Origin: Thermofilum pendens Hrk 5
GTDB lineage: Archaea > Thermoproteota > Thermoprotei > Thermofilales > Thermofilaceae
Length of the DNA stretch: 32,000 nt
Direction of reading: 5' to 3'
NCBI RefSeq assembly: GCF_000015225.1
Contig: NC_008698.1
Span: forward strand, 1,470,001 to 1,502,000
Shown here: piece after piece, positions 7,589 to 26,887 of the stretch
Numbering within the stretch: position 1 is the first letter of the stretch
Layout of the letters: every line of letters begins with the position of its first letter
Translations under genes and position numbers: made by a program
Notes under the pieces: model-generated
The model's database searches: none
What the model saw: only the letters and a program-made list of their open reading frames with translations
Told to the model about the DNA's origin: nothing

Positions 7589-8786
7589 AGCGGCTAGGAA
7601 GGCGCTGTCGAAGCCCTCTCCCTATGGCCCGGACCTCGATTTATCGTCCTTCAGGGTCGCGGCGCCGGGGTACTCCGCCGGGGAGCCGCCCAGGGCTGTC
7701 TCCTCCTCCGTGAAGGAGAGAGTCGGCATAGACGTTTCCCGGGCGAGCTACGTCCAGGTGGGCGAGACTATCTTTGCGAGGGTTCTAGCCGAGAGGCTAT
7801 TCCGGGAATACGGGGTCGTGGTGAAGCCCCTCTCGAAGGCTTTGAAGGAGGACGGGCCCGCCGCGAGGGTAGCTTGGTCCCTGATAGACCCGGCGACGGA
7901 CAAGTACACCGCCTACGCCTACCTCTACGGCGGGGAGGCCGGCTACTACGTCTACGTACCGCCAGGCGTCAAGGTCGACGTGCCGATATACACCTGCCTG
8001 AGCCTCTTCACAGGGGAGGAGGTCCAGTTCGCTCACAACGTCGTCTACCTCGACGAGGGGGCGGAGGCTGTCGTCACGACGGGTTGCCTCGTGCCGCACG
8101 GCGTCAAGGGAGGGCTCCACGTGGGGCTTTCGGAGTTCTTCGTGGGTCCCGGCGCGAGGCTCGTCTTCACCATGCTCCACGCGTGGGGCGAGGGTACGCA
8201 CGTACGCCCCAGGACTGCGGTGAGGGTGGAGGAGGGCGGAGAATACGTGAGCTACTACGCCGTGTACAGCCCGGTAGCGTCCCTGCAGACGTACCCCAGG
8301 GTTTACCTGTATAGGCGGGCGAGCGCCAAGCTAACCTCCGTAGTCGCCGGCACGGGGCCCGGCGTCTACGACGTGGGTGGAGGGGCCGTGCTTCTGGGAG
8401 AGGGGAGCAGCGCGGAGCTCGTCTCCAGGGTGCTCGGGAGCAAGGGGTCTACGATAGTCTCCAGGGGGTCTGTAGAGGCGGAGGCCAACGACGTGAAGGG
8501 GCACATAGAGTGCCTTGGGGTCATGCTCGACCCCTCTTCGACCATAGAAGCTGTCCCGGTGCTGAAGTCCAGGGTGGAGAGGGCTGAGCTGACGCACGAG
8601 GCGGCTATAGGCATGCTCTCCGGGGAGAAGATAGAGTACCTTATGGCTAGGGGGTTCAGCGAGGAGGAGGCGAGGTCTATACTCCTGAGGGGCTACCTCA
8701 CAGCGGAGACCCCGGGCCTACCTGAGAGCGTTAAAGGCGAGATCGAAAGGGTAATAGAGTACGTCGTGAGGCACGCCCTCGGGTAG
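7566..8786 (+). CDS. sufB: Fe-S cluster assembly scaffold of the SufB/SufD family (SufB-like, 406 aa)
   Basis: Overlaps sufC by 23 nt (GTG 7566; ATG 7575 is an alternative). The C-terminal pattern KGHIECLGVML...THEAAIGMLSGEKIEYLMARGFSEEEARSILLRGYL matches SufB/SufD (..C.sLll..HEA.vg.i.eeqlfYL.sRG.seeeA). The conserved Cys favours SufB over SufD. Confidence 0.8.
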   Translation: MRLMERVEAARKALSKPSPYGPDLDLSSFRVAAPGYSAGEPPRAVSSSVKERVGIDVSRASYVQVGETIFARVLAERLFREYGVVVKPLSKALKEDGPAARVAWSLIDPATDKYTAYAYLYGGEAGYYVYVPPGVKVDVPIYTCLSLFTGEEVQFAHNVVYLDEGAEAVVTTGCLVPHGVKGGLHVGLSEFFVGPGARLVFTMLHAWGEGTHVRPRTAVRVEEGGEYVSYYAVYSPVASLQTYPRVYLYRRASAKLTSVVAGTGPGVYDVGGGAVLLGEGSSAELVSRVLGSKGSTIVSRGSVEAEANDVKGHIECLGVMLDPSSTIEAVPVLKSRVERAELTHEAAIGMLSGEKIEYLMARGFSEEEARSILLRGYLTAETPGLPESVKGEIERVIEYVVRHALG

Positions 8787-8790
8787 GGGC

Positions 8791-10701
8791 TCACGCCTTG
8801 TCGAACTTGAAGGGGCTTATCACCGGCCCGTAGCGCGCGCCGGCGTCTTTAAGCCTCCTCTCCTGGTCCCTGAGTATTTCGAAGAGTAGTGGAGGGGCAT
8901 CGCTGTCCTCCAGGTACGCTTTGTACACTCTCTCCACCTTGCCCAGGTAGTTTAGAACCCTCACGGAGAACATCTCTTCGTAGAGCCCCTCGGGGAACTC
9001 CTTGCCGAGGTGCTTGTCGAAGATCTCCCTGAGATCCTCGTAGACAGGCACGTAGCCTACGGGCGTTTTAACCGCGCCTACCTCGCCGTTAACCCTCGCC
9101 TCCATCCACCTCAGCCACGCCAGCTTGTCGCGCTTCTCCGCTAGGTAGTTGCCGTCCTTCCCCCTCAGGAAGTAGTTGACCCCGAATATCTTCGGCGTGA
9201 CTCTGAGCTTCCCCGCGAACCTGAAGTGGAGCTCCGTGAAAGCCCCGGGGGATATGGGCAGGAAGTCGAGGATAGCGTAAGGGTTTAGCTCTGTCACCCC
9301 TACCTGCCCGATCACGGCGGCGGTCTTCTCGCTTTCAAGCGCCGCGCCCATCATCACCACTCCGTGGTTCCAGTCGAAGGACTCGAGTACGGGGGGAAGG
9401 GTAGAGGAATCCCTGCCACCAAACACCATCGCGGAGAGGGGGACTCCGCCCGGGTCGTCTATTCTCGGGTCTAGCTTCGGGAAGTGCCTGATGCTGAGCG
9501 TGAACCTAGCGTTGGGGTGCGAGGGTGGAACCTCCTTTCCGCCTTCGTCCCTCTTGCCGGGCCACCACTCGCCTGCGTAGTTTAGGCCTTCCCTGGGCTC
9601 CTCGGGCTTCCCCCTCCACCACACCTCCCCGTCCCTCGTGAGCAACACGTTGCTGAATATTACTTCCACCTCGGGGTTCGTGAGTAAACTGTAGATCTCC
9701 GGGTCGTCGGCCGGGTTCACGCCGTCTATTATCCCGAACATGCCGACCTCTGGGTTCACCGCAACCGCTACGCCGTTAACGGCGTGTATCAGCGCTAGGT
9801 CGTCCCCAACGACCGTGTCCGCGATCATGGCGGTGGACGTTTTCCCGCAACCAGCCGGGAAAGCCCCCGCGAAGTAGGTTAGCCTGCCTCCGCGCCCCTT
9901 CAACCCGACGATGAACATGTGCTCGGCAAGCCAGCCCTCCTTGTAGCCCTTGTATACAGCAAGCCTGAGGGCGAGCTTTTTCAGGCCCACGGTGTTCCCG
10001 GCGTACTGAGTGTTGACGGAGTAAACAGTGCTGTTCTCAACGTCGATGTAGATCCTGCGCTTATCAGTGTTCTTGCTCCAACCCCTCTCGTCCCTCTCCC
10101 CCGCAGAGTGCACGAACAGCATGTACTCCACGTCCTCTCCTTTCTCCACGAAGTCCCGGTAAGCGTTTCTGTAGAGCAGTTCCTCGCTGTGAGTAACGTA
10201 CGCCGAGTCCGTTACCTGGACGCCGTAGAGGGAGAAGGGAGAGCCCCGGGGTCCGTAGAGGTAGAAGGACACGAAGGCTTCCCTTCCGCGCATTACTCCC
10301 TCGAAGAGCTCCCTTAGCTCCTCCACGCCCCTCCCCCTGTCGTAGGTATTGACCATCGCTACCCGCCTTCCGCCGGGGTAGAGGATTCTCGTGTTCGCGA
10401 CGTCCCTTGCGAGGTCCTTCGCTCCGTCGAAATGGACGGTGTGCCTCTCGTATCTCGTCGGGAGCTCCTCCCCGTTATCGAGCGCCCTCCTCCTTATGTA
10501 CTCTCTGTCGCTCTCGCTACCCGTGTTCACGAATAGGCTTGAGGGCTTAGCCACCAGGATGACGGCAGCTATGTCCCTCAGGAGCCTGGAGTTCCTCGTC
10601 CTCAGGAGCCTCTCGAAGTGCTCGTCCGAGGTTTTCCCCCTTATAAGGCTCAGCGATTCCTCTGTTGACAGCTCGACCCCCAGTACCGGTAGCCTATTCA
10701 C
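8791..10701 (-). CDS. pckG: GTP-dependent phosphoenolpyruvate carboxykinase
   Basis: 636 aa with kinase-1a P-loop context FPAGCGKTSTAM. Overall architecture of the archaeal/eukaryotic-type GTP-PEPCK, including PNARFT and GVNYFLR-type motifs. An ATTATTTAT TATA-like element lies about 25-30 nt upstream, around 10725-10735. Confidence 0.92.
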   Translation of the reverse strand: MNRLPVLGVELSTEESLSLIRGKTSDEHFERLLRTRNSRLLRDIAAVILVAKPSSLFVNTGSESDREYIRRRALDNGEELPTRYERHTVHFDGAKDLARDVANTRILYPGGRRVAMVNTYDRGRGVEELRELFEGVMRGREAFVSFYLYGPRGSPFSLYGVQVTDSAYVTHSEELLYRNAYRDFVEKGEDVEYMLFVHSAGERDERGWSKNTDKRRIYIDVENSTVYSVNTQYAGNTVGLKKLALRLAVYKGYKEGWLAEHMFIVGLKGRGGRLTYFAGAFPAGCGKTSTAMIADTVVGDDLALIHAVNGVAVAVNPEVGMFGIIDGVNPADDPEIYSLLTNPEVEVIFSNVLLTRDGEVWWRGKPEEPREGLNYAGEWWPGKRDEGGKEVPPSHPNARFTLSIRHFPKLDPRIDDPGGVPLSAMVFGGRDSSTLPPVLESFDWNHGVVMMGAALESEKTAAVIGQVGVTELNPYAILDFLPISPGAFTELHFRFAGKLRVTPKIFGVNYFLRGKDGNYLAEKRDKLAWLRWMEARVNGEVGAVKTPVGYVPVYEDLREIFDKHLGKEFPEGLYEEMFSVRVLNYLGKVERVYKAYLEDSDAPPLLFEILRDQERRLKDAGARYGPVISPFKFDKA

Positions 10702-10793: not shown

Positions 10794-12155
10794 CTACAAG
10801 AGTAGGAACGGCGCGTATACGAGCATGTTCAGCGCAGTTACGAGCACGCCTACCCTGAGGAACTCCGTGAATGTTATCGTCGTCTTGAAGCGCCTTTCGA
10901 GCATCTCGAGAATGATGATATTCGAAGCCGCGCCCAGCAGGGTAAGGTTGCCGGCGATGGTTGAAGCTGTTGCCAGCGTTAGCCAGGCTCGGACATCGGT
11001 ACTCGAGTAGCCTAGCCCCCTCATGTACTCCACCATTATGCTTGCCAGCGGCACGTTACTCAGGAACTGGCTCAGCGCCAGCGAGAGGAGGGCTATCGCG
11101 AAGAGATCCCGGGCTCCGGTAGCCTTCTCGGGGAGCAAGAGCCGTAGTGCGGGGTCGACGACCCCGCTCCTCATAACCCCCGCGACCGTTATGAACATGG
11201 TTATGAAGAACACTACGGTGGACCAGTCGACCCTCGAGAGGATCCTCCTCGGGTTGGAGGTGAACGGGTAGATAGCGGCGGCAGCGACGAACGGTATAAT
11301 GCCCCTGTCCGATACGTGCGGCATCCCGGCGAGCTCGAGGAAGTCGTTGACCACCAGCGCGAGAACTGTTCCGGCGAGGCCGGCGGCCGCCAGGGCGGCA
11401 TCCCTCCTGTTCCTTATGGCTTCCTCCGGGATCAGCGCCACCTGCACCTTAGCGTCCCTCAGCCCATAGAGCTTGGAGAGCAGGTAGGCCGTTAGGAGCA
11501 GGTTGACGAGCGTGGGTACCGCCAGCCTAGCCGTGAATACCAGCATTGGGGCCGGCATCCCGGAGCCCGAGGCTATGAGCACGTTCTGGGGGTTCCCTAT
11601 GGGGGTCATCGCCGACCCTATCGTTATCGAAAAGGCCAGGAGGAGGAACATCGCCTTGGGGTCTATGCCGGCCGCCCGCGAAATCACGTACGCCACCGCG
11701 GGGCCCATGAGGGCAACGGTGTCGTTTACCGCGAACGCGGCGAGCAGGCCGAAGAGAACGGCCGACGCGTAGAAGAGCTTCACCCTGCTGTGAAACCTGG
11801 ATACGAAGAAGTAGGAGGCGGCAGTGAGGAGCCCGCTCGTCTCCGCGAGCCCTACTATGCTGAACATACCCACGAGGAATAGTATCACGTCTACGTCTAC
11901 GCTCTTCCTCACGTCGTCTATGCCGAGAAGCCCCGTGGCTACGACTATGAAAGAGGCAAACGCCATGATGCTCCACACAGGAGTCTTAGGCCTCCTGCTA
12001 CGCGCCACGAGGGCTACCGTTAGGTACACCAGTACACCGGCACCTATCAGGGGCTTCGCGTCGAACATACGCTTCCAACACTCAGAACCCGTTGCGAAAA
12101 ACGTTTCTCTCATGTGCACGGAGTAGACGAATGCCACCCGCAAGGCGAGCATCAC
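10794..12155 (-). CDS. ArsB/NhaD-superfamily anion or ion permease (CitMHS/P-protein-like)
   Basis: A polytopic membrane protein with the duplicated pattern typical of the family (GSAMTPIGNPQNVLI ... ASTIAGNLTLLGAASNIIIL) and SQFLSNVPLA. The true start is more likely ATG 12068 (MFDAKPLIGAG...) than 12155. Confidence 0.8.
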   Translation of the reverse strand: MMLALRVAFVYSVHMRETFFATGSECWKRMFDAKPLIGAGVLVYLTVALVARSRRPKTPVWSIMAFASFIVVATGLLGIDDVRKSVDVDVILFLVGMFSIVGLAETSGLLTAASYFFVSRFHSRVKLFYASAVLFGLLAAFAVNDTVALMGPAVAYVISRAAGIDPKAMFLLLAFSITIGSAMTPIGNPQNVLIASGSGMPAPMLVFTARLAVPTLVNLLLTAYLLSKLYGLRDAKVQVALIPEEAIRNRRDAALAAAGLAGTVLALVVNDFLELAGMPHVSDRGIIPFVAAAAIYPFTSNPRRILSRVDWSTVVFFITMFITVAGVMRSGVVDPALRLLLPEKATGARDLFAIALLSLALSQFLSNVPLASIMVEYMRGLGYSSTDVRAWLTLATASTIAGNLTLLGAASNIIILEMLERRFKTTITFTEFLRVGVLVTALNMLVYAPFLLL

Positions 12156-12336
12156 GGATACGAGCTCGGAGAGTGTTAAGGGCCTGAATCAGCTCGATGA
12201 AAATTGCAGACGAAAACGCTAGCACAAGTATAACCGGCATGGTTGTAGACGCGTGGAGAAGTGGGCTAACGATAAAGCTGTCTTCCGCGGCATTAAAGCG
12301 AAAAAGTTTATCTTAGACTAAAAGGCTACTAAGAAC

Positions 12337-12912
12337 GTGGCTACAGAGCTAAAGCGTTCAAGAAAAGTGCTGTCTACTACAGATATTGTCGCCATGGGTA
12401 TTGGAACGGCGCTCTACGCTGCCTTCAACGTTTTCTTCAACATTCTCCAGATACCTGGATCACAACTCGTCTCCGTGCGTCCCAGCGTAAGTATACCCAT
12501 GTTCTTCGGCCACGTATTCGGCCCAGTTGTAGGCTTTGTAGTGGGGTTTCTCGGAAACACGATAAGTGACGCTGTGAGCTGGGGAGGTTTCTGGTGGAAC
12601 TGGGACGTGGGCAACGGGCTCCTCGGACTGATATCCGGGCTGGCATCGTACATTATTAAGCGCGAAGAGCTACTAGAGAAGAAGGGGTTAATGGTAGCGT
12701 CGGTACTCGCAGTCGTAGGATCTATAGTCGGCATGGGCTTCGCGTCCTTTACTGACTACATTTTCGGGTATGGGATATCTACGATCGAAGAGGCAATATA
12801 CGCGTTGTTCCTACCAGCCGCTGTGACCGACGCCGTTAACGGCGCCATACTCACCCCTGTCTTGATCAAAGCTTATAGTGCGGCGGTAAAAGGCAGGTCT
12901 AGGAGAACCTAG
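12337..12912 (+). CDS. ECF transporter substrate-capture (S) component, module 1; specificity unknown
   Basis: 191 aa, about 6 TM segments, GTG start 30 nt downstream of AAGTTTAT (12303-12310). It sits immediately upstream of ecfT (1-nt gap). A small Gly/aromatic-rich integral membrane protein, typical of S components. Confidence 0.65.
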   Translation: MATELKRSRKVLSTTDIVAMGIGTALYAAFNVFFNILQIPGSQLVSVRPSVSIPMFFGHVFGPVVGFVVGFLGNTISDAVSWGGFWWNWDVGNGLLGLISGLASYIIKREELLEKKGLMVASVLAVVGSIVGMGFASFTDYIFGYGISTIEEAIYALFLPAAVTDAVNGAILTPVLIKAYSAAVKGRSRRT

Positions 12913-12913
12913 A

Positions 12914-13705
12914 ATGTCGAGCAGAATAGTTAGGTACATTGAAGGGAGTAGCATCGTACACAGACTGGATCCCAGGGTTAAACTATTTTTTGTTGGAAGC
13001 GTGGTTTTAGCGGCTTCGCTTTCCTACAACCTCCTTCTAGCGGTACTAACACTAGCATTAGGCCTATCGTTCTATCTTCTCGCAAGGCTTCCCTTCTCGA
13101 AAACGAAGAACACTTGGAAGTTCATACTGATCGTAGCCCTGGTTCTGTCTTTCCTGAACTATCTGTTCGTAGCTGTGCTCTACCATAGGCCGCGCGGAGA
13201 GCTATTAGAGGCATTTATGAGCGCGGAGCTCCTCTCCAGGTCTATCACTCCTGTACTCAAGCTTCTAGCGGTAGCAACAGTTACGGTCGCGTTCGTTTAC
13301 ACAACTCCTCCTCACCTTTACGCTCCTGCGCTAGGACAACTCGGGCTGAGCTACAGGGCCGCGTATGCCGTACATCTAGGTTTTAGGTACTTCCCTCAGT
13401 TCGTGGACGAGTTAAGGCGCACATTAGAAGCGCAGATGGCTAGGGGGTATAGGCCGCGGGGTGGGAAGAATCCTCTCGGCAGGATCTTAGCGGTAATCCC
13501 GTTGATAGTGCCCGTAACCGTGTCTGCAACGCTCTCCATCTACGATGTCTCCGATGCGATGGAGCTGAGGGGGTTCGGAGGGACAAAGTGCCATACGTGG
13601 TATAGAAAACTGTCCATGAAAACTCTGGACAAGGCTTTCGCTATACTTTCGGCTGTAATCTCGCTGGTATTCCTCGCTTTATACGTTCTTCGCCCCTTAC
13701 CATAG
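12914..13705 (+). CDS. ecfT: ECF transporter transmembrane (T) component EcfT/CbiQ family, module 1
   Basis: N-terminal VHRLDPRVKL motif and the coupling-helix motif AQMARGYRP (x-R-G). 263 aa with about 5-6 TM segments. Confidence 0.85.
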   Translation: MSSRIVRYIEGSSIVHRLDPRVKLFFVGSVVLAASLSYNLLLAVLTLALGLSFYLLARLPFSKTKNTWKFILIVALVLSFLNYLFVAVLYHRPRGELLEAFMSAELLSRSITPVLKLLAVATVTVAFVYTTPPHLYAPALGQLGLSYRAAYAVHLGFRYFPQFVDELRRTLEAQMARGYRPRGGKNPLGRILAVIPLIVPVTVSATLSIYDVSDAMELRGFGGTKCHTWYRKLSMKTLDKAFAILSAVISLVFLALYVLRPLP

Positions 13706-18978: not shown

Positions 18979-20625
18979 TTGCGTTCAGCCGTGGAGTTCC
19001 CGGTGGTCTTACGGGTGCCTGAAATAGAGGTCGAGGAGCTTTCGTTTACTTACGCCGGTAAAGGGGAGCCAGCGTTAAGGAACGTTAGCTTGGAAGTAGA
19101 CAAGGGCGAAGTGGTGCTTCTTGCCGGTAGGAGCGGGAGCGGGAAATCTACGCTTTTAAAGGCCATCAATGGGCTGATACCCCATAGGTACTCGGGAACT
19201 TATAAGGGAGCCGTCAGGGTAAGGGGGCTTACCGTAGCAGAAACTCCCGTCTACGAATTGTCGAGAATTGTAGGCACAGTTATGCAGGAGGTCTCGAAGC
19301 AACTATTTCTGCCAACAGTAGCGGATGACGTAGCGTTTGGCCCCTCCAACCTATGCATCGAGAGAGAGGAAATTGAGAGGAGGGTTGAAGAGGCGCTGAG
19401 TAGACTCGGCATACTGCACCTGAAGGATCGCGACGTGAACGAGCTGAGTGGCGGCGAGAAACAGAGAGTAGCCATAGCCGGCGTCTTAGCCATGAAGCCC
19501 GAAATAATACTCATGGATGAGCCTCTAGCCAATCTCGATAGCGAAGGTGTAGCCACGGTTCAAGAGGTGATAAAGAGTTTCCGCGAAGAGGGAAAAACAG
19601 TCGTAATAGCGGAACACAGAGTTGAGGAAGTTCTGGAGGTAGGGGTGGACCGGGTCTTCGTGATGAGAGAGGGAACCATAGTTAGGGAGGTGGAGAGAGT
19701 AGAGGAGCTCGCCAACTTTGCGGATGAACTGAAGGTTCCAGCAGAGGCTTACTTGCCCCCGGGCATCGTGGAGGCTCCACGCATCTCTCTGCCGCATCAC
19801 TCTCCGGGGGTAGTCGCCGTAGAGTTTAGGAATGTGAGCTTTAGCTACGAGGACAAGCCCGTACTCAAAGGGATAAACCTTGAGATACGCGAGGGGGAGA
19901 GAGTCGCGCTTCTCGGAAACAATGGCGCCGGTAAAAGCACAATGGCGAAGCTCATGCTCGGCTTGCTTAAACCTACGGAGGGTAGCGTCCTGGTCTACGG
20001 ACGGGATACCCACACGATGGAAGTCTATGAAGTCGCGCCGATGGTCGGGCTAGTGTTTCAGGATCCTTTCAGCATGCTATTCGCGGAGACCGTGCGAGAA
20101 GAAATAGCATTTGGGCCTAGAAATCTGGGAGTTCCGCCCTCCGAGATACCTGGGAGAGTGGAGGAGGCGGCGGAGAGGTGCTTTGTGAAGCACTTGCTCG
20201 ACTTCTCCCCCTTTGCGTCTAGCCATGGGGAGAAGAAGAGAATATGCGTTGCCTCAATACTATCTATGAAGCCAAGGATTCTGGTGCTGGACGAGCCTAC
20301 AGCGGGGCAGGACTACGCTACATATACTGCTTTCATGGAGTTCGTAGACTCCCTGGTAAACGCCGGCGTCATTAAAACACTTGTACTAATAACGCATGAC
20401 ACCGATCTCGCAGTGGAATACACAGACAGAACAATAGTGCTTGCTAACGGAGAGATAGTGGCAGACGGACCAACTAGGAAAGTGCTTTCAGACTCCTCTG
20501 TGCTTGCAAAGGGGAAGATTCGTGAGACAAGCCTTATTAGGCTAGGCAAAAGGCTCACCGGTGGAAACTACATCTTGTCGAGAAAAGAACTAGCTATGCT
20601 AGCACGTAGCAGGACGCATTCGTAG
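18979..20625 (+). CDS. Fused tandem ECF/CbiO-type ABC ATPase (A-A'), module 1
   Basis: Two NBDs. NBD1: GRSGSGKST / LSGGEKQR / IILMDEP. NBD2: GNNGAGKST / degenerate SSHGEKKR / ILVLDEP. The track start is TTG 18979; GTG 19015 (MPEIEVEELSFTY) aligns better with the paralog's N-terminus. Confidence 0.92.
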   Translation: MRSAVEFPVVLRVPEIEVEELSFTYAGKGEPALRNVSLEVDKGEVVLLAGRSGSGKSTLLKAINGLIPHRYSGTYKGAVRVRGLTVAETPVYELSRIVGTVMQEVSKQLFLPTVADDVAFGPSNLCIEREEIERRVEEALSRLGILHLKDRDVNELSGGEKQRVAIAGVLAMKPEIILMDEPLANLDSEGVATVQEVIKSFREEGKTVVIAEHRVEEVLEVGVDRVFVMREGTIVREVERVEELANFADELKVPAEAYLPPGIVEAPRISLPHHSPGVVAVEFRNVSFSYEDKPVLKGINLEIREGERVALLGNNGAGKSTMAKLMLGLLKPTEGSVLVYGRDTHTMEVYEVAPMVGLVFQDPFSMLFAETVREEIAFGPRNLGVPPSEIPGRVEEAAERCFVKHLLDFSPFASSHGEKKRICVASILSMKPRILVLDEPTAGQDYATYTAFMEFVDSLVNAGVIKTLVLITHDTDLAVEYTDRTIVLANGEIVADGPTRKVLSDSSVLAKGKIRETSLIRLGKRLTGGNYILSRKELAMLARSRTHS

Positions 20626-20704: not shown

Positions 20705-21658
20705 GTGGCGGCGCTGGGTAGGAGGGAGTGGGAGAGGCTTATCAAGGCTTTGGAGGAGGATAGGGAGCTTAGGTACGCGTTAGCCGGTTTGCTGGGCTTC
20801 AGGGATTTGCTCGAGAAGATGGACGCGACGCTGAGCGAGATAAAGGCTTTGAGGGAGGGACAGGAGCAACTGTGGAGAAAACAGGAGAAGCTGTGGGGAG
20901 AGGTGAGAAAGCTCTGGGAGGAAGTCAGAGCGCTGAGAGAGGATCAAAGAAAGCTGTGGGAAGAGGTAAAAGCTCTGAGGGAAAACCAGGAAAAGCTATG
21001 GGAGGAAGTGAAGTCCCTCAGAGAGGGGCAGGGAAAGCTATGGGAAGAAGTTAAGGCGCTGAGAGAGGATCAGAGGAGGCTGTGGGAGGAGGTGAAGGCT
21101 CTCAGGGAAAACCAGGAAAAATTATGGGAGGAAGTTAGAGCTTTAAGAGAGGACCAGGGGAAGCTGTGGGAAGGCCAGCAGAGGCTCTGGGAGGAGGTCA
21201 GGGCGCTGAGAGAAGGGCAGGAGAGGTTGCGTGGAGATGTGGATGGGCTACGCGCCAGTTTTAGGCAACTAGGCGAAGCTGTTGGCATGACACTCGAGTT
21301 CTACGCCGCCGCTTTCCTGGAGAGACTCCTGGCGGAGAAGGGGTACCCGGAGGCTAGGGTCAGGGTTGGCGTCAACCTAGCGTACAAAGGCGTACTAGTA
21401 GAGCTCGACCTCTTCTGCGAGGAGCCGTTGCTAGTGGGGGAAGTGACTACCTACCTGCGCTCCGCCGAGGATGCCGAGAGGGAGGCGGCTAAGCTTATGG
21501 AGAGAGTTAAGGTAGTCGAGGAGATCAGCGGGAGAAAAGTGGAGCTAGCAGTGCTGGCTGTAGCGAACCTCGGCAGAGAAGCCCTAGAGGTCCTGGAGAA
21601 GCTACATAGAGAGAAAGGAGTACTGGTCGTAACCGGTAGAGAACTAGAGTACCCCTAA
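20705..21658 (+). CDS. Coiled-coil repeat protein with a C-terminal alpha/beta domain resembling a PD-(D/E)xK-type nuclease fold
   Basis: aa 43-190 are about 10 units of LWEEV(K/R)ALRE(D/N/G)Q(R/E/G)K. The C-terminal part, LEFYAAAFLERLL...VLVELDLF..LLVGEVTTYL...VELAVLAV, has an E...D...E-x-(K replaced by T) layout. Confidence 0.8.
   Translation: MAALGRREWERLIKALEEDRELRYALAGLLGFRDLLEKMDATLSEIKALREGQEQLWRKQEKLWGEVRKLWEEVRALREDQRKLWEEVKALRENQEKLWEEVKSLREGQGKLWEEVKALREDQRRLWEEVKALRENQEKLWEEVRALREDQGKLWEGQQRLWEEVRALREGQERLRGDVDGLRASFRQLGEAVGMTLEFYAAAFLERLLAEKGYPEARVRVGVNLAYKGVLVELDLFCEEPLLVGEVTTYLRSAEDAEREAAKLMERVKVVEEISGRKVELAVLAVANLGREALEVLEKLHREKGVLVVTGRELEYP
20831..21268 (+). repeat. In-frame tandem repeat, 42-nt (14-aa) period with three 21-nt half units
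   Basis: Unit starts are at 20831, 20870, 20891, 20912, 20954, 20996, 21038, 21080, 21122, 21164, 21185 and 21227. The units differ mostly at synonymous or conservative positions. Confidence 0.9.
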
Positions 21659-21743: not shown

Positions 21744-21751
21744 TATTTATA
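21744..21751 (+). promoter_or_regulatory. TATA box (TATTTATA) for ECF module 2
   Basis: Lies 29-36 nt upstream of TTG 21780. Confidence 0.45.
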
Positions 21752-21779
21752 GGACCTGGAAACAGGGCTTGAAGGGCAC

Positions 21780-22532
21780 TTGGGTACCACCCTTAAGGAA
21801 AGCTCGGGTGTAAAGAGAAGGATAAGCACGCAGGACGTTGCCCTCGTCGCCGTTATGGCTGCTCTCGCCAACGTCCTGGGCTTCTTCGCTATACCTGGCC
21901 CCTGGAACATACAGTTCAGCATGACCGGGATCCCGATACTTCTAGTAGCCTTCACGAGAGGCCCTCTGCTAGGAGCCCTTACAGGCCTCCTCGGCGGCTA
22001 CGTCCAGGCGGTGAAGTACGGGTGGGAGGGCTACGTTGTCTACACAGCCATACAGGGCGGCGTGGCAGGCTTCTTCGCGAAGAAGGTGAGACTGCTCAGG
22101 GTACTAGCGCCTCCATTCTTCTTCTTCGGCGGCTTCTTCTTAACGTGGTGGGTCGACCAGATGAGGTACGGCAAGGTGACCTTCGAGGACCTAGTATCAA
22201 TGACCCAGCGAGCCGTGGCGGCAGGTCCGGAGACCGGGCTGGCCGTGCCCTACGTCTCCATAGTCAGCGGCGTTGTGGCAGCGGCGGTAGCCGCCCTGCT
22301 GGTCCTAAGGTTCCCCGAGAATAGAAGGTTGTTGCTCACGCTGGCTGGCTGCATGGGGGCCATAGCCTACGTGCCCTACGATGCCTTCGCCCTCTACGTT
22401 GTGCAACAGTACCCGTGGATCCCCACGTGGTTCGTGCTGGCAAAGGACCTAGTCCAGGACTTCGTAGCGGCAGGCATCACGGCCAGCATACTCGAGAACA
22501 AGAGGGTTAGGAGGCTACTGGGGGGTGCGTAG
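21780..22532 (+). CDS. ECF transporter S component-like membrane protein, module 2; specificity unknown
   Basis: 250 aa, polytopic. The N-terminal ISTQDVALVAVMAALANVLGFFAIPGP..FSMTGIPILLVAF is typical of S components. TTG start. Its stop lies 2 nt before the ATPase start. Confidence 0.6.
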   Translation: MGTTLKESSGVKRRISTQDVALVAVMAALANVLGFFAIPGPWNIQFSMTGIPILLVAFTRGPLLGALTGLLGGYVQAVKYGWEGYVVYTAIQGGVAGFFAKKVRLLRVLAPPFFFFGGFFLTWWVDQMRYGKVTFEDLVSMTQRAVAAGPETGLAVPYVSIVSGVVAAAVAALLVLRFPENRRLLLTLAGCMGAIAYVPYDAFALYVVQQYPWIPTWFVLAKDLVQDFVAAGITASILENKRVRRLLGGA

Positions 22533-22534
22533 GA

Positions 22535-24067
22535 GTGGGCGAAGTAGTTAGAGTGGAAAACCTGTCTTTCTCTTACCCCAACGGGAGGAGGGCGCTGGAC
22601 TCCGTAAGCCTCTCGATAAGCCAAGGCGAGTTCGTCGCGGTTATGGGTCCTTCCCCGTCCGGCAAGTCCACGCTGGTCTACGCCCTCTCGGGCCTGATAC
22701 CGCACTGCGTAAAAGGCGAGATTAAGGGGTCAGTGAAGGTAGACGGGCTGGACACCAGGGAGCACCCCGTAGCAGAGCTGGCGAAGCGCGTCGGCGTAAT
22801 CCTGCAGGACCCGGAGGCTCAGCTACTCGAGCTCCGGGCGGTAGACGAGGTGGCATTACCCCTGGAGAACCTGGGGGTCCCGGCGGAGGAGATAAGGCTC
22901 AGGGTCGGCGAGGCGCTGGAGATGGTCGGGCTTAGGGGGTACGAGGAGAGGAGCCCCTCGGAGCTCTCCGGGGGCGAGAAGCAAAGGCTAGCCATAGCCT
23001 CCGTACTGGCCCTCAGGCCTAAGGTCATAGTGCTGGACGAGCCGACGGCGAACGTAGACCCTCCGGGAACACTGCAGGTCTACGAGACCTTGAAGAGGCT
23101 AAACGAGGAACACGGCCTGACGGTTATAGTCGTGGAGAACAAGGTGGAGGTAGCGCGGAGGTACGCTAAGAGGGCCGTGCTCATGGAGGGAGGGCGCGTG
23201 GTAGCCGACGGGGAGCCGAGCAAGGTGCTCCGCTCCGACGTTCTCGCTAGGCTGGGGCTGGACGCCCGCCCGGCGAGGCGCCCTGCGAAGGCGAGGGCGG
23301 GTAGCCGCGGGCGCGAGGTGGTCAGGTTCGAGGAAGTGAGCTTCAGGTATCCCGACGGGACTCTGGCCCTCGACCACGTGGATTTAACGCTTAGGGAGGG
23401 CGAGGTAGTCTTCCTGATGGGTAGGAACGGTAGCGGTAAAAGCACCCTGGTGAAGCACATGAACGGTCTTCTCAAGCCGAGCAGCGGGAGGGTGCTCGTC
23501 GACGGCTGCGACACTCGGACGTGCCCTACTTACAGGCTGTCGAGGATAGTGGGGCTGGTTTTCCAGAACCCGGCGCACCAGATAGTAGGGGAGAGCGTGT
23601 ACGACGAGATAGCGATGGGGCTCCGGCACCTGGGTGTAGGCGGGGACGATGTTAGGAGAGAGGTCGCGAGGATCGCCAGGGCGTTCGAGCTGGAAGACAA
23701 GCTGGACATGATACCGGAGGAGCTCAGCGTCGGTGAGCTCAAGAGGTTGATGATAGCGTCGATCGTAGCGATGAGGCCCAAGGTCCTAGTCCTCGACGAG
23801 CCTATGACGGGGATGACCAGTGCCCACTCGAGGAGGGTGCTGGACACCGTCCTGGGGATGCTGGGGGAAAGCTCTACAATCGTTGTCATAACACACGACC
23901 CGCGGTTGGCGTTCGAGTACGCCACGAGAGTCGTTGTGATGTCAAGGGGTAGGGTTGTGCAGGACGGCTCTCCAGAGGTGCTGGCCCGGTGCGAGCTTCT
24001 CTCAAGCTACCTGGAGGTGGTGCCGGATGTTCAGGTATGGCGGCATAACCGTGATCCACAGGCTTGA
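22535..24067 (+). CDS. Fused tandem ECF/CbiO-type ABC ATPase (A-A'), module 2
   Basis: NBD1: GPSPSGKST / LSGGEKQR / VIVLDEP. NBD2: GRNGSGKST / degenerate LSVGELKR / VLVLDEP. GTG start. Confidence 0.92.
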   Translation: MGEVVRVENLSFSYPNGRRALDSVSLSISQGEFVAVMGPSPSGKSTLVYALSGLIPHCVKGEIKGSVKVDGLDTREHPVAELAKRVGVILQDPEAQLLELRAVDEVALPLENLGVPAEEIRLRVGEALEMVGLRGYEERSPSELSGGEKQRLAIASVLALRPKVIVLDEPTANVDPPGTLQVYETLKRLNEEHGLTVIVVENKVEVARRYAKRAVLMEGGRVVADGEPSKVLRSDVLARLGLDARPARRPAKARAGSRGREVVRFEEVSFRYPDGTLALDHVDLTLREGEVVFLMGRNGSGKSTLVKHMNGLLKPSSGRVLVDGCDTRTCPTYRLSRIVGLVFQNPAHQIVGESVYDEIAMGLRHLGVGGDDVRREVARIARAFELEDKLDMIPEELSVGELKRLMIASIVAMRPKVLVLDEPMTGMTSAHSRRVLDTVLGMLGESSTIVVITHDPRLAFEYATRVVVMSRGRVVQDGSPEVLARCELLSSYLEVVPDVQVWRHNRDPQA

Positions 24068-24857
24068 CCCTAGAGCGAAGATTGTGTGGCTAACCTCGCT
24101 GATGGTGATTGCCCTGATAGTGATCGACCCGCTATACCTGCTACCCCCGCTAGCCTTCGCGGTAGCATTCCTCCTGCTGTCTAGGGTATACGAGCTTAAG
24201 GAGTTCCACTCGAAGTGGATAATGTCGACCCTCCTCGGGAGCACGCTACTACTAGTGCTCTTCAACGGCCTCTTCGCCGCAGTTGAGGTGAAAAAGGGCA
24301 CCGTGCTGTTCTACATCAGCTTCCTCGGGTTGAAGTACCCGGTAACCGTCGAGGGCTTCTACCTAGGGGTGGGAGCCGCGCTGAGGCTACTAGTGATAAT
24401 GCTCAGCTTTCTAACCGTAGCCTTCACCACGTACCCAAGAGACCTGGCGAACTCCCTGGAGAAGGTGGGGTTACCCTACGAACTGACCTTTACGGTAGCC
24501 CTAACCTTCAGGTTCATACCGTTCCTCGAAGAGGAGGCGAGGAGGATAGCCGACGCTCTCAAGTCCAGGGGCTACAGGGGGTTCGAGGAGGGAGGCTTCC
24601 TCGAGAGGCTTAGGGCTTACTCCACACTGTTCACCGTTCTCATCGTTAACAGCCTGAGCCTCGTTAGAAGGGTTGGAATGGTCTTGGAGGCCAGGTGCTT
24701 CGGCGCGTCGCCCAGGAGGAGCAGCCTGAGGGAGTACAGGTTCAGGAGGGAGGACTACCTGGTCGTAGCATCCTCCCTCCTGCTCCTAGCGTTGTACATA
24801 GTCCTCAGGTACTGCTACGGGCTGGGGTGGCTCGAGTATGCGCACGGCTACGTCTGA
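24027..24857 (+). CDS. ecfT: ECF transporter T component (EcfT/CbiQ family), module 2
   Basis: The internal ATG 24027 gives MFRYGGITVIHRLDPRAKIVWL, parallel to module 1's ..IVHRLDPRVKL. The coupling motif is ALKSRGYRG. The track's 23955 start would add a non-hydrophobic 24-aa extension lying inside the ATPase gene. Confidence 0.85.
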   Translation: MFRYGGITVIHRLDPRAKIVWLTSLMVIALIVIDPLYLLPPLAFAVAFLLLSRVYELKEFHSKWIMSTLLGSTLLLVLFNGLFAAVEVKKGTVLFYISFLGLKYPVTVEGFYLGVGAALRLLVIMLSFLTVAFTTYPRDLANSLEKVGLPYELTFTVALTFRFIPFLEEEARRIADALKSRGYRGFEEGGFLERLRAYSTLFTVLIVNSLSLVRRVGMVLEARCFGASPRRSSLREYRFRREDYLVVASSLLLLALYIVLRYCYGLGWLEYAHGYV

Positions 24858-25812
24858 GGGAAAAGCTAGGCTGGTCAGAGTGGATACCCCCGTAGAGGGA
24901 GTGGTACTCTACAGGGTGGTAAGGGAGGACCTGCCTAGAAACCAGTACATCATGGTGTGCGACGAGGTGCTCGAGATCCACACGAAGCCGTGGCTCTGCG
25001 GCGAAAAGCTCCACGAGCTAGCCAGGGAGGTGGCCGTCAAGTTCCTCAAAGTGCTGTACCACGAGCTACCCCTGAGGGGCGTTCCGCTAAGCAGGCTGTG
25101 CGAGTTGACGATAATGTCCGGGGGCATGTACTACATGATCGACGAAGCCTTCAAGGATGTCTTCGGGAGGAGCCTTCAGAGGTGCATCGTGGGCGCGAAG
25201 CGCTACCCGATGGGGGACGGCGCGTGGGATGTTGACATAAGCTACGAGAACTTCGAGGCTCTACCCGATAGAGCCATAGTCATAGTCGGCGATACCATAG
25301 CGACCGGGGCCACTCTATCGGGCTCGCTACTCAGGCTTAAGCAAGCCGCGCTGGAAAAGGGCTACAGGGTGGACAAGGTAGCCGTTCTGACGATATCGGG
25401 CGCCGTCGAGGGTAGCCGAAGGCTGAGAAAAGTGGAGGAAGAGTTCAGGAAGACGTGGAAAGACTTCGAGCTGTACGTGTTCAACTGCTGCGCGCTGTTC
25501 GGCCTCGAACCCAATGGAACCGACATGCCGTACGGGCACCCGGACACTATAGCCCCGGAGGACGTAGTCTCCACCGTAAACGAGCGCCTAACCCCGCAGC
25601 TTGCTAGAAGGCTTTGCAGCATATTCGACTGGGGGGACAGGACCAAGAACCCGGAGAAGCACCTCAGAGAGCTCGTGGAGCTAGCCGAGAGGCTACGGCA
25701 CGAGTGTAGCGACGACGGGTGCCTCAAAGTACTCGATATCATAAAGGCTAAAGCTAGCGAAGAGCTAAAGGCGAGAATGAACCCTGTAGCCCTGAGGCAC
25801 CGACACGAATAA
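24838..25812 (+). CDS. Uracil-phosphoribosyltransferase-like (type I PRTase fold) protein with N- and C-terminal extensions
   Basis: PRPP-loop DRAIVIVGDTIATGATLSG (compare Upp's ALIVDPMLATGGS). The layout is collinear with Upp (LHELAREVA.., TIMSGGMYYM.., VAVLTISGAVEG.., ELYVFNC). Overlaps ecfT by 20 nt (GTG 24877 is an alternative start). Confidence 0.65.
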   Translation: MRTATSEGKARLVRVDTPVEGVVLYRVVREDLPRNQYIMVCDEVLEIHTKPWLCGEKLHELAREVAVKFLKVLYHELPLRGVPLSRLCELTIMSGGMYYMIDEAFKDVFGRSLQRCIVGAKRYPMGDGAWDVDISYENFEALPDRAIVIVGDTIATGATLSGSLLRLKQAALEKGYRVDKVAVLTISGAVEGSRRLRKVEEEFRKTWKDFELYVFNCCALFGLEPNGTDMPYGHPDTIAPEDVVSTVNERLTPQLARRLCSIFDWGDRTKNPEKHLRELVELAERLRHECSDDGCLKVLDIIKAKASEELKARMNPVALRHRHE

Positions 25813-25827
25813 AAAAAATATTTTATT
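25811..25827. terminator. Bidirectional oligo-T/oligo-A terminator between convergent genes
   Basis: The sequence is AAAAAAAATATTTTATT. It provides a T-run for plus-strand transcripts (25821-25827) and a T8 run for minus-strand transcripts (complement of 25811-25818). Confidence 0.5.
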
Positions 25828-26887
25828 AGCTGAAGATCCTGGCCTCTGTCTCTTTGTCGAAGAAGTGTAGCTTCGAGGGGTCAAGGTATACCTTGACTCT
25901 CTCCGACTCGGGCTTCTCTCGACTCCTCGCCCTGAGGATGACATCGCCCACGCTTACCAGCACTACGTACTCTCCTCCCAGGTTCTCCGTGACCCAGACG
26001 CTTCCCTCGACTTCTATGAAGCCTGGGGAGGCCGTTAAATGGACGTCCTCGGGCCTTATGCCCACTATGACCCTCTTGCCGCTGTACTCCTCGAGACTCC
26101 CCGCGCCCACAGGCAGAACCACGAAGCCGACGTCGACACCTCTAGGCGTAACCGTGCCTTCGAAGAGGTTTATGGGGGGCGACCCTATGAAGTGCGCGAC
26201 AAACCTGCTCGAAGGCTTGCTGTATATCTCCTCCGGGGGTCCCACTTGGAGTACCCTTCCTCTGTTCATTACCGCTACCCTGTCGGCTAGAACCATTGCT
26301 TCCACCTGGTCGTGCGTTACGTAGATCGTGGTGAGGCGGGTATCGCGCTGGAGCCTTTTTAGCTCCGCCCTCGCCTGCACCCTGAGGAGGGCATCGAGGT
26401 TGCTCAGAGGCTCGTCCATGAGCAGTACGCGCGGCGTCACTGCCAGCGCCCTGGCAACCGCGACCCTCTGTCTCTGCCCACCCGAGAGTTGCTGCGGGTA
26501 CCTGTCGAGGAGATCCTCTATCTGCACGAGCCGCGCCGCCTCCCTAACCCTGCGCTCGATCTCCTCCGGAGGGTAGCCCTGCACCTTGAGTGGTAACGCA
26601 ATGTTATCGTACACCTTCATGTGCGGCCACACGGCGTAGCTCTGGAACACCATCGAGATCTTCCTCTTGCCGGGGGGTAGCCTCGTCACGTCCTCCTCTC
26701 CGAAGAACACCCTCCCCTCGTCCGGCTCCTCTAGGCCCGCGATTATTCGGAGAGTCGTTGTCTTGCCGCAACCGCTGGGCCCCAGGAGTACGAAGAACTC
26801 TCCCTCCTTGACCTCCAGGCTAACGTCGTCCACCGCGACTACCTTCCCGTACCGCTTGGTAACGTGCTCCAGCCTAACCCCCACCAT
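25826..26887 (-). CDS. Sugar ABC transporter ATP-binding protein (MalK/UgpC/MsiK-like)
   Basis: GPSGCGKTT, LSGGQRQRVAVARAL, LLMDEPLSNLD, VTHDQ, and a C-terminal regulatory (TOBE-like) domain. 353 aa. Confidence 0.93.
   Translation of the reverse strand: MVGVRLEHVTKRYGKVVAVDDVSLEVKEGEFFVLLGPSGCGKTTTLRIIAGLEEPDEGRVFFGEEDVTRLPPGKRKISMVFQSYAVWPHMKVYDNIALPLKVQGYPPEEIERRVREAARLVQIEDLLDRYPQQLSGGQRQRVAVARALAVTPRVLLMDEPLSNLDALLRVQARAELKRLQRDTRLTTIYVTHDQVEAMVLADRVAVMNRGRVLQVGPPEEIYSKPSSRFVAHFIGSPPINLFEGTVTPRGVDVGFVVLPVGAGSLEEYSGKRVIVGIRPEDVHLTASPGFIEVEGSVWVTENLGGEYVVLVSVGDVILRARSREKPESERVKVYLDPSKLHFFDKETEARIFS

Follow-up and report, generated by a model that had tools for sequence, protein, structure and literature searches.

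An ECF importer operon with a long Upp-like phosphoribosyltransferase homologue in Thermofilum pendens: a candidate nucleobase import-and-trap module

Four consecutive genes of the archaeon Thermofilum pendens Hrk 5, encoding an importer of the energy-coupling factor (ECF) class and a phosphoribosyltransferase-like (PRT-like) protein, are best read as a module for the import and intracellular trapping of a nucleobase. They lie in a window of 32,000 nucleotides (C1:1470001-1502000, the whole stretch of DNA analyzed here) within a genome of 1,813,393 bp on two contigs. According to the published description, the organism has a pyrimidine pathway but is unable to synthesize purines, and a nucleobase transporter could not be identified in it (PMC2678158). 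In the mechanism that we propose, the four genes would form one operon whose dedicated ECF importer brings in a free nucleobase, and the PRT-like enzyme would use phosphoribosyl pyrophosphate (PRPP) to convert the imported base to its 5'-mononucleotide, trapping it in the cell. We arrive at this reading from the recurrence of the gene pairing in a hot-spring clade and from a deoxyribosyltransferase-like gene in a sister module, and with uracil or a close pyrimidine analogue as the most likely base we assign it a probability of about 0.35. A uracil-like base is placed first because the predicted fold is specifically that of uracil phosphoribosyltransferase (UPRTase, Upp) and because almost all other carriers of the gene are without a canonical Upp; the S component of the importer would presumably bind the same compound as the enzyme.

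Layout of the operon and its importer

The open reading frame (ORF) call yields four genes on the forward strand, for the S component (positions 21780 to 22532, 250 aa, with a TTG start), the fused EcfA-EcfA' ATPase (22535 to 24067, 510 aa), the T component of the CbiQ family (24027 to 24857, 276 aa) and the PRT-like protein (24838 to 25812, 324 aa). A gap of 2 nt separates S from A-A', while A-A' and T overlap by 41 nt and T and the PRT-like gene by 20 nt, which reproduces the coordinates of the original prediction. The longest reading frame for T begins at 23955. Its start at ATG 24027, which gives the 41-nt overlap, is supported by the alignment of the resulting protein, from its first residue (residue 1) onwards, with the orthologue in an uncultured Thermoproteales archaeon (locus L010). 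The four genes are presumably co-transcribed.

Upstream of the operon the anticipated TATA box was found as a TATA-like sequence, TATTTATA (21744 to 21751, forward strand), about 33 nt 5' of the TTG codon of S; an equivalent A/T box is kept in the two orthologous loci L010 and L105, and the element presumably acts as a promoter. A block of 13 nt, GAAGGGCACTTGG (21771 to 21783, forward strand), contains the TTG start itself and is invariant in three loci with differing flanks; it probably serves in ribosome binding or initiation. At the other end, the stop codons of the PRT-like gene and of a convergent gene for a sugar-type ABC ATPase (25826 to 26887, reverse strand) are separated by a spacer of 13 nt that consists of A and T only (25813 to 25825) and that could be an archaeal oligo-T termination site for both genes. 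Of the bidirectional terminator proposed for this position the A/T-only spacer between the convergent stops thus stands, but a search downstream of the operon returned no hairpin terminator. The window contains no match to any Rfam family, the thiamine pyrophosphate (TPP) riboswitch included, and riboswitch control was rejected on this ground.

By its sequence the importer belongs to the ECF class, with all three component families represented. The S component matches PF07155 (ECF-ribofla_trS) with 29.7 bits against a cut-off of 26.7 (E 7.9e-7) and, more weakly, the Pfam families ThiT and ECF_trnsprt; its neighbours in the Atlas are ECF S clusters throughout. The fused ATPase has two ABC_tran domains and matches TIGR04520 with 413 bits (cut-off 315) and TIGR04521 with 393 bits (cut-off 330), and the T component matches PF02361 (CbiQ) with 111 bits (E 7e-32). 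The Pfam and NCBIfam matches together with the gene overlaps support the view of a dedicated ECF module with a translationally coupled PRT-like gene, and ATP-driven uptake of a defined substrate by S, A-A' and T is predicted. As to the nature of this substrate, the NCBIfam matches of the S component are confined to generic RibU/ThiT/FolT-type models far under their cut-offs, and none of the YkoE, NiaX or CblT-type models in Pfam and NCBIfam matches it. The S component represents a tiny archaeal subfamily, here termed S250, with 22 relatives found that are each at least 43% identical; orthologues are present in three further genomes (G258, G253 and G254).

The original prediction had drawn a tentative analogy to YkoEDC, a type of module related to hydroxymethylpyrimidine (HMP) and thiamine in bacteria. 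This analogy found no support in the sequence: a YkoE-type match is missing for S, there is neither a TPP nor any other Rfam element in the window, and the related loci contain no thiamine genes. A YkoEDC/HMP-type module was discarded for want of these three signals.

A distant relative of uracil phosphoribosyltransferase

The PRT-like protein has no Pfam match at E <= 0.01, PF14681 and TIGR01091 among the models not matched, and its sole NCBIfam match, to the PRPP loop of PRPP synthase, is faint. It was assigned from a fold model, a family alignment and profile comparison as a long Upp-like homologue of the type I phosphoribosyltransferases. The AlphaFold (AF2) model is of high confidence (pLDDT 93.5, pTM 0.91) and shows an N-terminal extension, an Upp core of approximately residues 34-275 with an insertion of about 28 aa at 236-263, and a C-terminal helical extension of residues 276-324. 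As evidenced by Foldseek, the best matches in the PDB are all uracil phosphoribosyltransferases. Alignment with VIA-align gave Z scores of 17.2-20.8 against UPRTases, with a root-mean-square deviation of 2.0-3.7 A over 184-204 aligned residues that cover whole Upp chains including the C-terminal hood, but Z scores of only 10-12 against PyrR and the adenine, orotate and hypoxanthine-guanine-xanthine enzymes (APRT, OPRT, HGXPRT). Identity to Upp is 15-24%. The family profile matches Aquifex Upp with an E value of 9e-4 as well as the PRPP loops of Upp, APRT and HGPRT, and its comparison with the Upp of T. pendens itself by hhalign gave a probability of 83.5% (E 8e-6). The Upp-type PRPP loop and the collinear Upp-like core that had been predicted are therefore borne out by profile comparison and structure.

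The loop motif, VIVGDTIATGATLSG, occupies residues 148-162 and includes the stretch V-I-V-G-D-T-I-A-T-G-A-T (148-159), which does not vary within the family. The alignment of 41 members (A1) shows G-D-T-I-A-T-G to be invariant and Y-E-N-F-E, N-G-T-D, C260 and D-W-G-x-R-x-K-N-P-x-K-H to be invariant or nearly so, with C260, W265, K270 and H275 among the invariant residues; D229, D264 and R268 remain invariant even with Upp in the alignment. Relative to Upp, K121-R122 aligns to the K-R ahead of the flexible loop, G-D-T-I-A-T-G to D-P-M-L-A-T-G, N-G-T-D to the L-N-D stretch and, after the insertion of about 28 residues, D-W-G-D-R to D-A-G-D-R; comparing F-D-W-G-D-R at the C-terminus with the G-L-G-D-A-G-D-R of Upp, only the Asp and the Arg are kept. 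With 324 aa against 217 aa for the organism's own Upp the protein is about 110 aa longer, and this length difference and the replacement of D-P-M-L by G-D-T-I are both as first described.

The protein thus has the Rossmann-like core and the PRPP-binding loop of the type I superfamily and the fold of Upp including the hood, but neither the family models nor the signature motifs of canonical Upp. In a quick maximum-likelihood (ML) tree with long branches the nine ECF-linked sequences group together with a support of 99 within the core family, beside clades from Asgard archaea, Micrarchaeota and the candidate phyla radiation (CPR), and the Upp of T. pendens attaches elsewhere on a very long branch. 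We conclude that the PRT-like protein is a distant relative of Upp rather than a canonical Upp and belongs to a new family in the Upp branch of type I phosphoribosyltransferases. The earlier view that it was unlikely to be a standard uracil enzyme gains from the missing PF14681 and TIGR01091 matches, from its placement in a family of its own and from the canonical Upp encoded elsewhere in the genome (C1:36570-37193, 161 bits in a whole-genome search with PF14681 that did not match the PRT-like gene). PRPP-dependent catalysis is likely in view of the conserved residues. A complex prediction for the PRT-like protein with the fused ATPase scored 0.00, a value that counts neither for nor against binding.

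A word-indexed search returned about 120 relatives of the protein, and an exhaustive profile search 414 clusters at E <= 1e-3. This long Upp-like family is unnamed and has no Pfam model; its hosts are Thorarchaeota, Lokiarchaeota, Hodarchaeales, Hadesarchaea, Micrarchaeota and CPR bacteria. Canonical Upp was looked for in 31 other carriers and found full-length in none of them, two having weak partial matches just over the cut-off, which fits the long Upp-like family being their UPRTase, although the test is a weak one.

Outside the ECF-linked clade the gene neighbours, taken from ORFs called by a simple longest-ORF rule, vary with the lineage. In Micrarchaeota PyrD-PyrK lies 5' and a PNP_UDP_1-like gene 3' of the PRT-like gene; Hadesarchaea have ValRS and an MBL-fold protein as neighbours, and the neighbours in CPR and other bacteria are uninformative or lineage-specific. 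Asgard neighbours comprise ThiF, an acyl-CoA-synthetase-like protein, a LarB-like AIRC protein, a glyoxalase, MarR with a PNPOx-like gene, and EamA transporters. A ThiF-family gene adjoins the PRT-like gene in 16 loci, mostly labelled Asgard (for example L016, L020, L022, L023 and L058) and in several arrangements, often with the acyl-CoA-synthetase-like gene upstream and the genes for the LarB-like AIRC protein and the glyoxalase downstream.

Several further proteins carry related domains. Fusions were found with an N-terminal HAD_2 phosphatase (P0128, 531 aa, L104:637-2232), with a TauD dioxygenase (P0186, 636 aa) and with a PF00156 phosphoribosyltransferase domain (P0147, 563 aa). P0225 (365 aa, L136:3018-4115), a distantly related superfamily member from bacteria, is flanked by AllF-like and AllG-like genes and preceded by an AllH-like gene, within a cluster of the oxamic-transcarbamylase type (AllFGH); the paper on AllFGH (PMC11326118) does not mention a phosphoribosyltransferase. 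Three Asgard ORFs of 321-329 aa (G066:C175:42438-42758, G127:C21:1681-1992 and G042:C192:1424-1744) match only the central part of PF14681 with 29-36 bits and may be further long Upp-like groups. T. pendens itself has a second long Upp-like superfamily member (L098:1027-2055; G000:C1:1045640-1046239) with an ADTVATG loop and a DWSER motif. This paralogue of 342-358 aa is widespread in the order and present in 29 of 120 genomes of the class; it is divergent to a major facilitator superfamily (MFS) transporter gene in two Thermofilum genomes and stands beside ABC ATPase genes in others.

Recurrence of the pairing and competing explanations

The association of ECF genes with the PRT-like gene is not unique to T. 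pendens. It was found in six loci, the window and five from metagenomes or metagenome-assembled genomes (MAGs), in three gene orders, all within a hot-spring clade with identities of 61-72%. The order S250, A-A', T, PRT is shared by the window, L010 (on the same contig as the match of G258) and L105. In L106 the order is A, T, PRT, an S component of 180 aa (S180) and a DUF4430-like gene, and L001 shows T, PRT, S180 and the DUF4430-like gene from the contig edge; S180 has no detectable similarity to S250. In L140 an S component 66% identical to that of the window is followed by A-A' and T and, 1 nt after T, by a divergent, 28%-identical superfamily member of 305 aa (hhalign 97.8%, E 7e-13). The sister module in L139 is of the S250 type and continues with a protein of 201 aa lacking a Pfam match and then a Nuc_deoxyrib_tr gene (PF05014, E 1e-10; region 9322-10379), so that a nucleoside deoxyribosyltransferase-like gene stands about where the PRT-like gene stands in the window, with one gene between it and T. 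Among the S250 loci with known flanks the PRT gene follows T in four, and in five of the six independent loci the first or second gene after T encodes a soluble enzyme with a predicted free-nucleobase substrate. A literature search returned no paper describing an ECF-phosphoribosyltransferase pairing in archaea and nothing relevant on 'uracil phosphoribosyltransferase-like', and the T. uzonense paper does not deal with nucleotides.

The remaining genes at these loci differ. After the PRT gene, L001 (1794-4170) and L106 (2653-4404) encode, besides the S180 component, a membrane-anchored protein that matches DUF4430 weakly (E 5e-4 and 1e-3, respectively) and then a DUF4443/CggR_N-type regulator, with a weak wHTH-PRTase_assc match in L106 and a PF00156 phosphoribosyltransferase of 190 aa also downstream in L001. 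In L140 a ThiF gene (11687-12349) is convergent with the divergent ECF-linked PRT gene. The G254 module (L134:1481-5206 and 8359-8892) is convergent with genes for an IMPDH-like protein (inosine monophosphate dehydrogenase; 356 aa, no CBS match), a 369-aa protein and guaA, and a DUF1989 gene of the urea-amidolyase-associated type is divergent to S; the 369-aa gene between the guaB-like gene and guaA is not a member of the PRT-like family. In the window itself, the region directly 5' of the operon (20705-21658) encodes a 317-aa protein with a long Trp-rich coiled-coil repeat whose Pfam matches are spurious coiled-coil hits only, and a second ECF module, with a fused A-A' ATPase of 548 aa, occupies 12337-13705 and 18979-20625 with unrelated genes between its parts.

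Several observations weigh against import-and-trap of a uracil-like base by a dedicated module. With its canonical Upp and a complete pyrimidine pathway (pyrD, pyrE, pyrF) T. pendens would not need a second uracil phosphoribosyltransferase. Within phyla the complementarity of the two enzymes is not significant: Upp occurs in none of 10 Asgard carriers and in 17 of 111 non-carriers, and no sampled Micrarchaeota genome has Upp, whether it carries the PRT-like gene or not. The core family has Ser or Ala in place of the Arg of the 'LRAG' motif of Upp, and the insertion of 28 aa sits at the base-binding hood, so that specificity or even activity may differ. Of the 80 genome loci of the family only L010 is ECF-linked besides T. 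pendens, ECF genes being absent at 79 of the 80. Among 120 genomes of the same class a true orthologue exists only in T. pendens and G258, and six other Thermofilum genomes are without one, which makes the PRT-like gene an accessory gene. Finally, G254 has S250, A-A' and T without the PRT gene and with no enzyme gene after T, and the enzyme is therefore not obligatory for the S250 module. Co-occurrence across genomes thus held in a small hot-spring clade and failed at the 79 other genome loci, and import-and-trap of a heterocyclic base, as originally proposed, draws support from the coupling, the recurrence and the base-using enzyme of L139 and is weakened by its confinement to a small clade and by the PRT-less orthologous modules.

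The same mechanism could serve a purine base resembling hypoxanthine, xanthine or guanine, or some other nucleobase outside the pyrimidines, as part of the uptake route of a purine auxotroph, a version that we regard as unlikely but the first to be considered. It would suit an organism without purine synthesis or an identifiable nucleobase transporter (PMC2678158), the insertion in the hood could widen the base pocket, and the G254 module lies tail to tail with the IMPDH-like gene, the 369-aa gene and guaA. This last arrangement is convergent, however, and was seen in one genome only. The fold match to UPRTases is far better than to purine phosphoribosyltransferases (Z of about 20 versus about 10), T. 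pendens already has an Apt-like and two Gpt/Xpt-like enzymes, besides two PRPP synthases, and the absence of the module from six other Thermofilum genomes would be odd for an essential purine route.

Just as unlikely, in our estimate, is the absence of any substrate link. The PRT-like protein would then be a salvage enzyme with a housekeeping role, such as a UPRTase analogue in lineages that lack Upp, and its gene would have come to lie behind an ECF vitamin importer by chance in one small clade. The gene standing alone with lineage-specific neighbours at 79 of the 80 genome loci, the existence of the S-AA'-T module without it and the generic RibU/ThiT-type matches of S would all agree with this. 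Chance is harder to reconcile with overlapping start and stop codons, with a pairing that persists across three gene orders, two unrelated types of S component and a PRT that is only 28% identical, and with the other base-using enzyme encoded one gene after T in L139.

ECF transporters are chiefly vitamin importers, with cofactor precursors and metals as further substrates, and the imported compound might accordingly be the precursor of a cofactor, for instance nicotinate or another pyridine, or else a base related to corrinoids, which the PRT-like enzyme would convert to its mononucleotide. The LarB-like AIRC protein, ThiF and the acyl-CoA-synthetase-like gene beside Asgard relatives, the weak DUF4430 matches in the L001 and L106 modules and the HAD phosphatase fusion P0128 could be taken in the same sense. 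We nevertheless consider this improbable: the S component matches no YkoE, NiaX or CblT-type model, the Asgard neighbours are lineage-specific and not common to the Thermofilum clade, and a 414-aa protein of the QRPTase_C type is probably the nicotinate phosphoribosyltransferase of T. pendens. PRPP-dependent type I enzymes moreover yield beta-nucleotides and not alpha-ribazole phosphate. Least probable of these readings is a non-catalytic sensor of PRPP or nucleotides, akin to PyrR or PurR, with a regulatory role for the transporter or the operon. The 'LRAG' arginine is lost, an extra C-terminal helical domain is present and PRT domains have been reused as sensors in PyrR, itself among the fold matches. 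On the other side, the family keeps the PRPP loop and the Asp/Arg pair without exception, Pfam and NCBIfam detect no DNA- or RNA-binding domain, and a gene that mostly stands alone in minimal CPR and DPANN genomes makes better sense as a salvage enzyme. Whatever odds these readings leave fall to others.

Three specific roles of the PRT-like protein were considered and set aside. Replacement of the orotate enzyme (OPRTase), suggested by the PyrD-PyrK-PRT adjacency in Micrarchaeota, is at odds with a pyrE over the cut-off in four of the five Micrarchaeota carriers and a weaker one beside pyrF in the fifth, and for T. pendens with its own pyrF-pyrE. Salvage of 5-aminoimidazole-4-carboxamide (AICA) is unlikely, since PurP (PF06973) occurs in none of the eight Thermofilum genomes in a search that did not extend to PurH. 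A role as nicotinate phosphoribosyltransferase is weakened by the 414-aa QRPTase_C-type protein; PF04095 is absent.

If import-and-trap of a nucleobase is correct, a nucleobase-specific ECF importer with its own trapping enzyme would add both a substrate class and a design principle to these transporters, and would bring back the old idea of a 'group translocation of bases' in a modern, ATP-driven form. The operon is a concrete candidate for nucleobase uptake in T. pendens, the gap stated by Anderson et al. (PMC2678158). Independently of the substrate, the analysis defines a well-conserved and structurally confident phosphoribosyltransferase family that current domain libraries miss and that is widespread in Asgard, DPANN and CPR, where nucleotide salvage is reconstructed from such annotations. 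In its boldest form, which we consider doubtful, if not quite as much so as the purine route, the S250 module would be an ECF importer specific for nucleobases, the first of its kind, its uptake driven to completion by a dedicated phosphoribosyltransferase and supplying part of the uptake not found in T. pendens, and the long Upp-like family would be the missing uracil-type enzyme of Asgard archaea, Micrarchaeota, Hadesarchaea and CPR.

Comparison with known systems

The closest known relative of the enzyme is Upp itself (PF14681, TIGR01091; PDB 5e38, 3dmp, 1o5o, 1xtt, 1i5e), with which it shares the fold over the whole Upp chain, the K-R pair, the ATG at the end of the PRPP loop and, towards the C-terminus, the D-x-G-x-R motif that contains D264 and R268. 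It differs from Upp by the G-D-T-I loop, the replaced LRAG arginine, the hood insertion of 28 aa and the extensions at both termini that bring it to 324 aa versus about 210 aa. The two families are separate in the tree and coexist in T. pendens.

On the side of the importer, the combination of S, fused A-A' and T in one operon and in this order resembles the dedicated (group I-type) ECF transporters such as YkoEDC, whose name and roles reportedly go back to Rodionov et al. in 2009. The S component described here, however, belongs to a very small archaeal subfamily without a match to YkoE-type or other substrate-specific models, and the operon in addition holds the gene for a soluble enzyme that overlaps T.

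For the combination of importer and trapping enzyme the closest functional analogy may be CblT-CblS of Listeria innocua, which is said, in work by Gray and Escalante-Semerena from 2010, to take up alpha-ribazole and then phosphorylate it. The logic would be the same in both cases, an ECF-type S component importing a precursor and a dedicated cytoplasmic enzyme adding the phosphate-bearing group that traps it. The sequences are unrelated, and the trapping enzyme is a kinase acting on a riboside in Listeria, whereas in T. pendens it is a predicted PRPP-dependent transferase acting on the free base.

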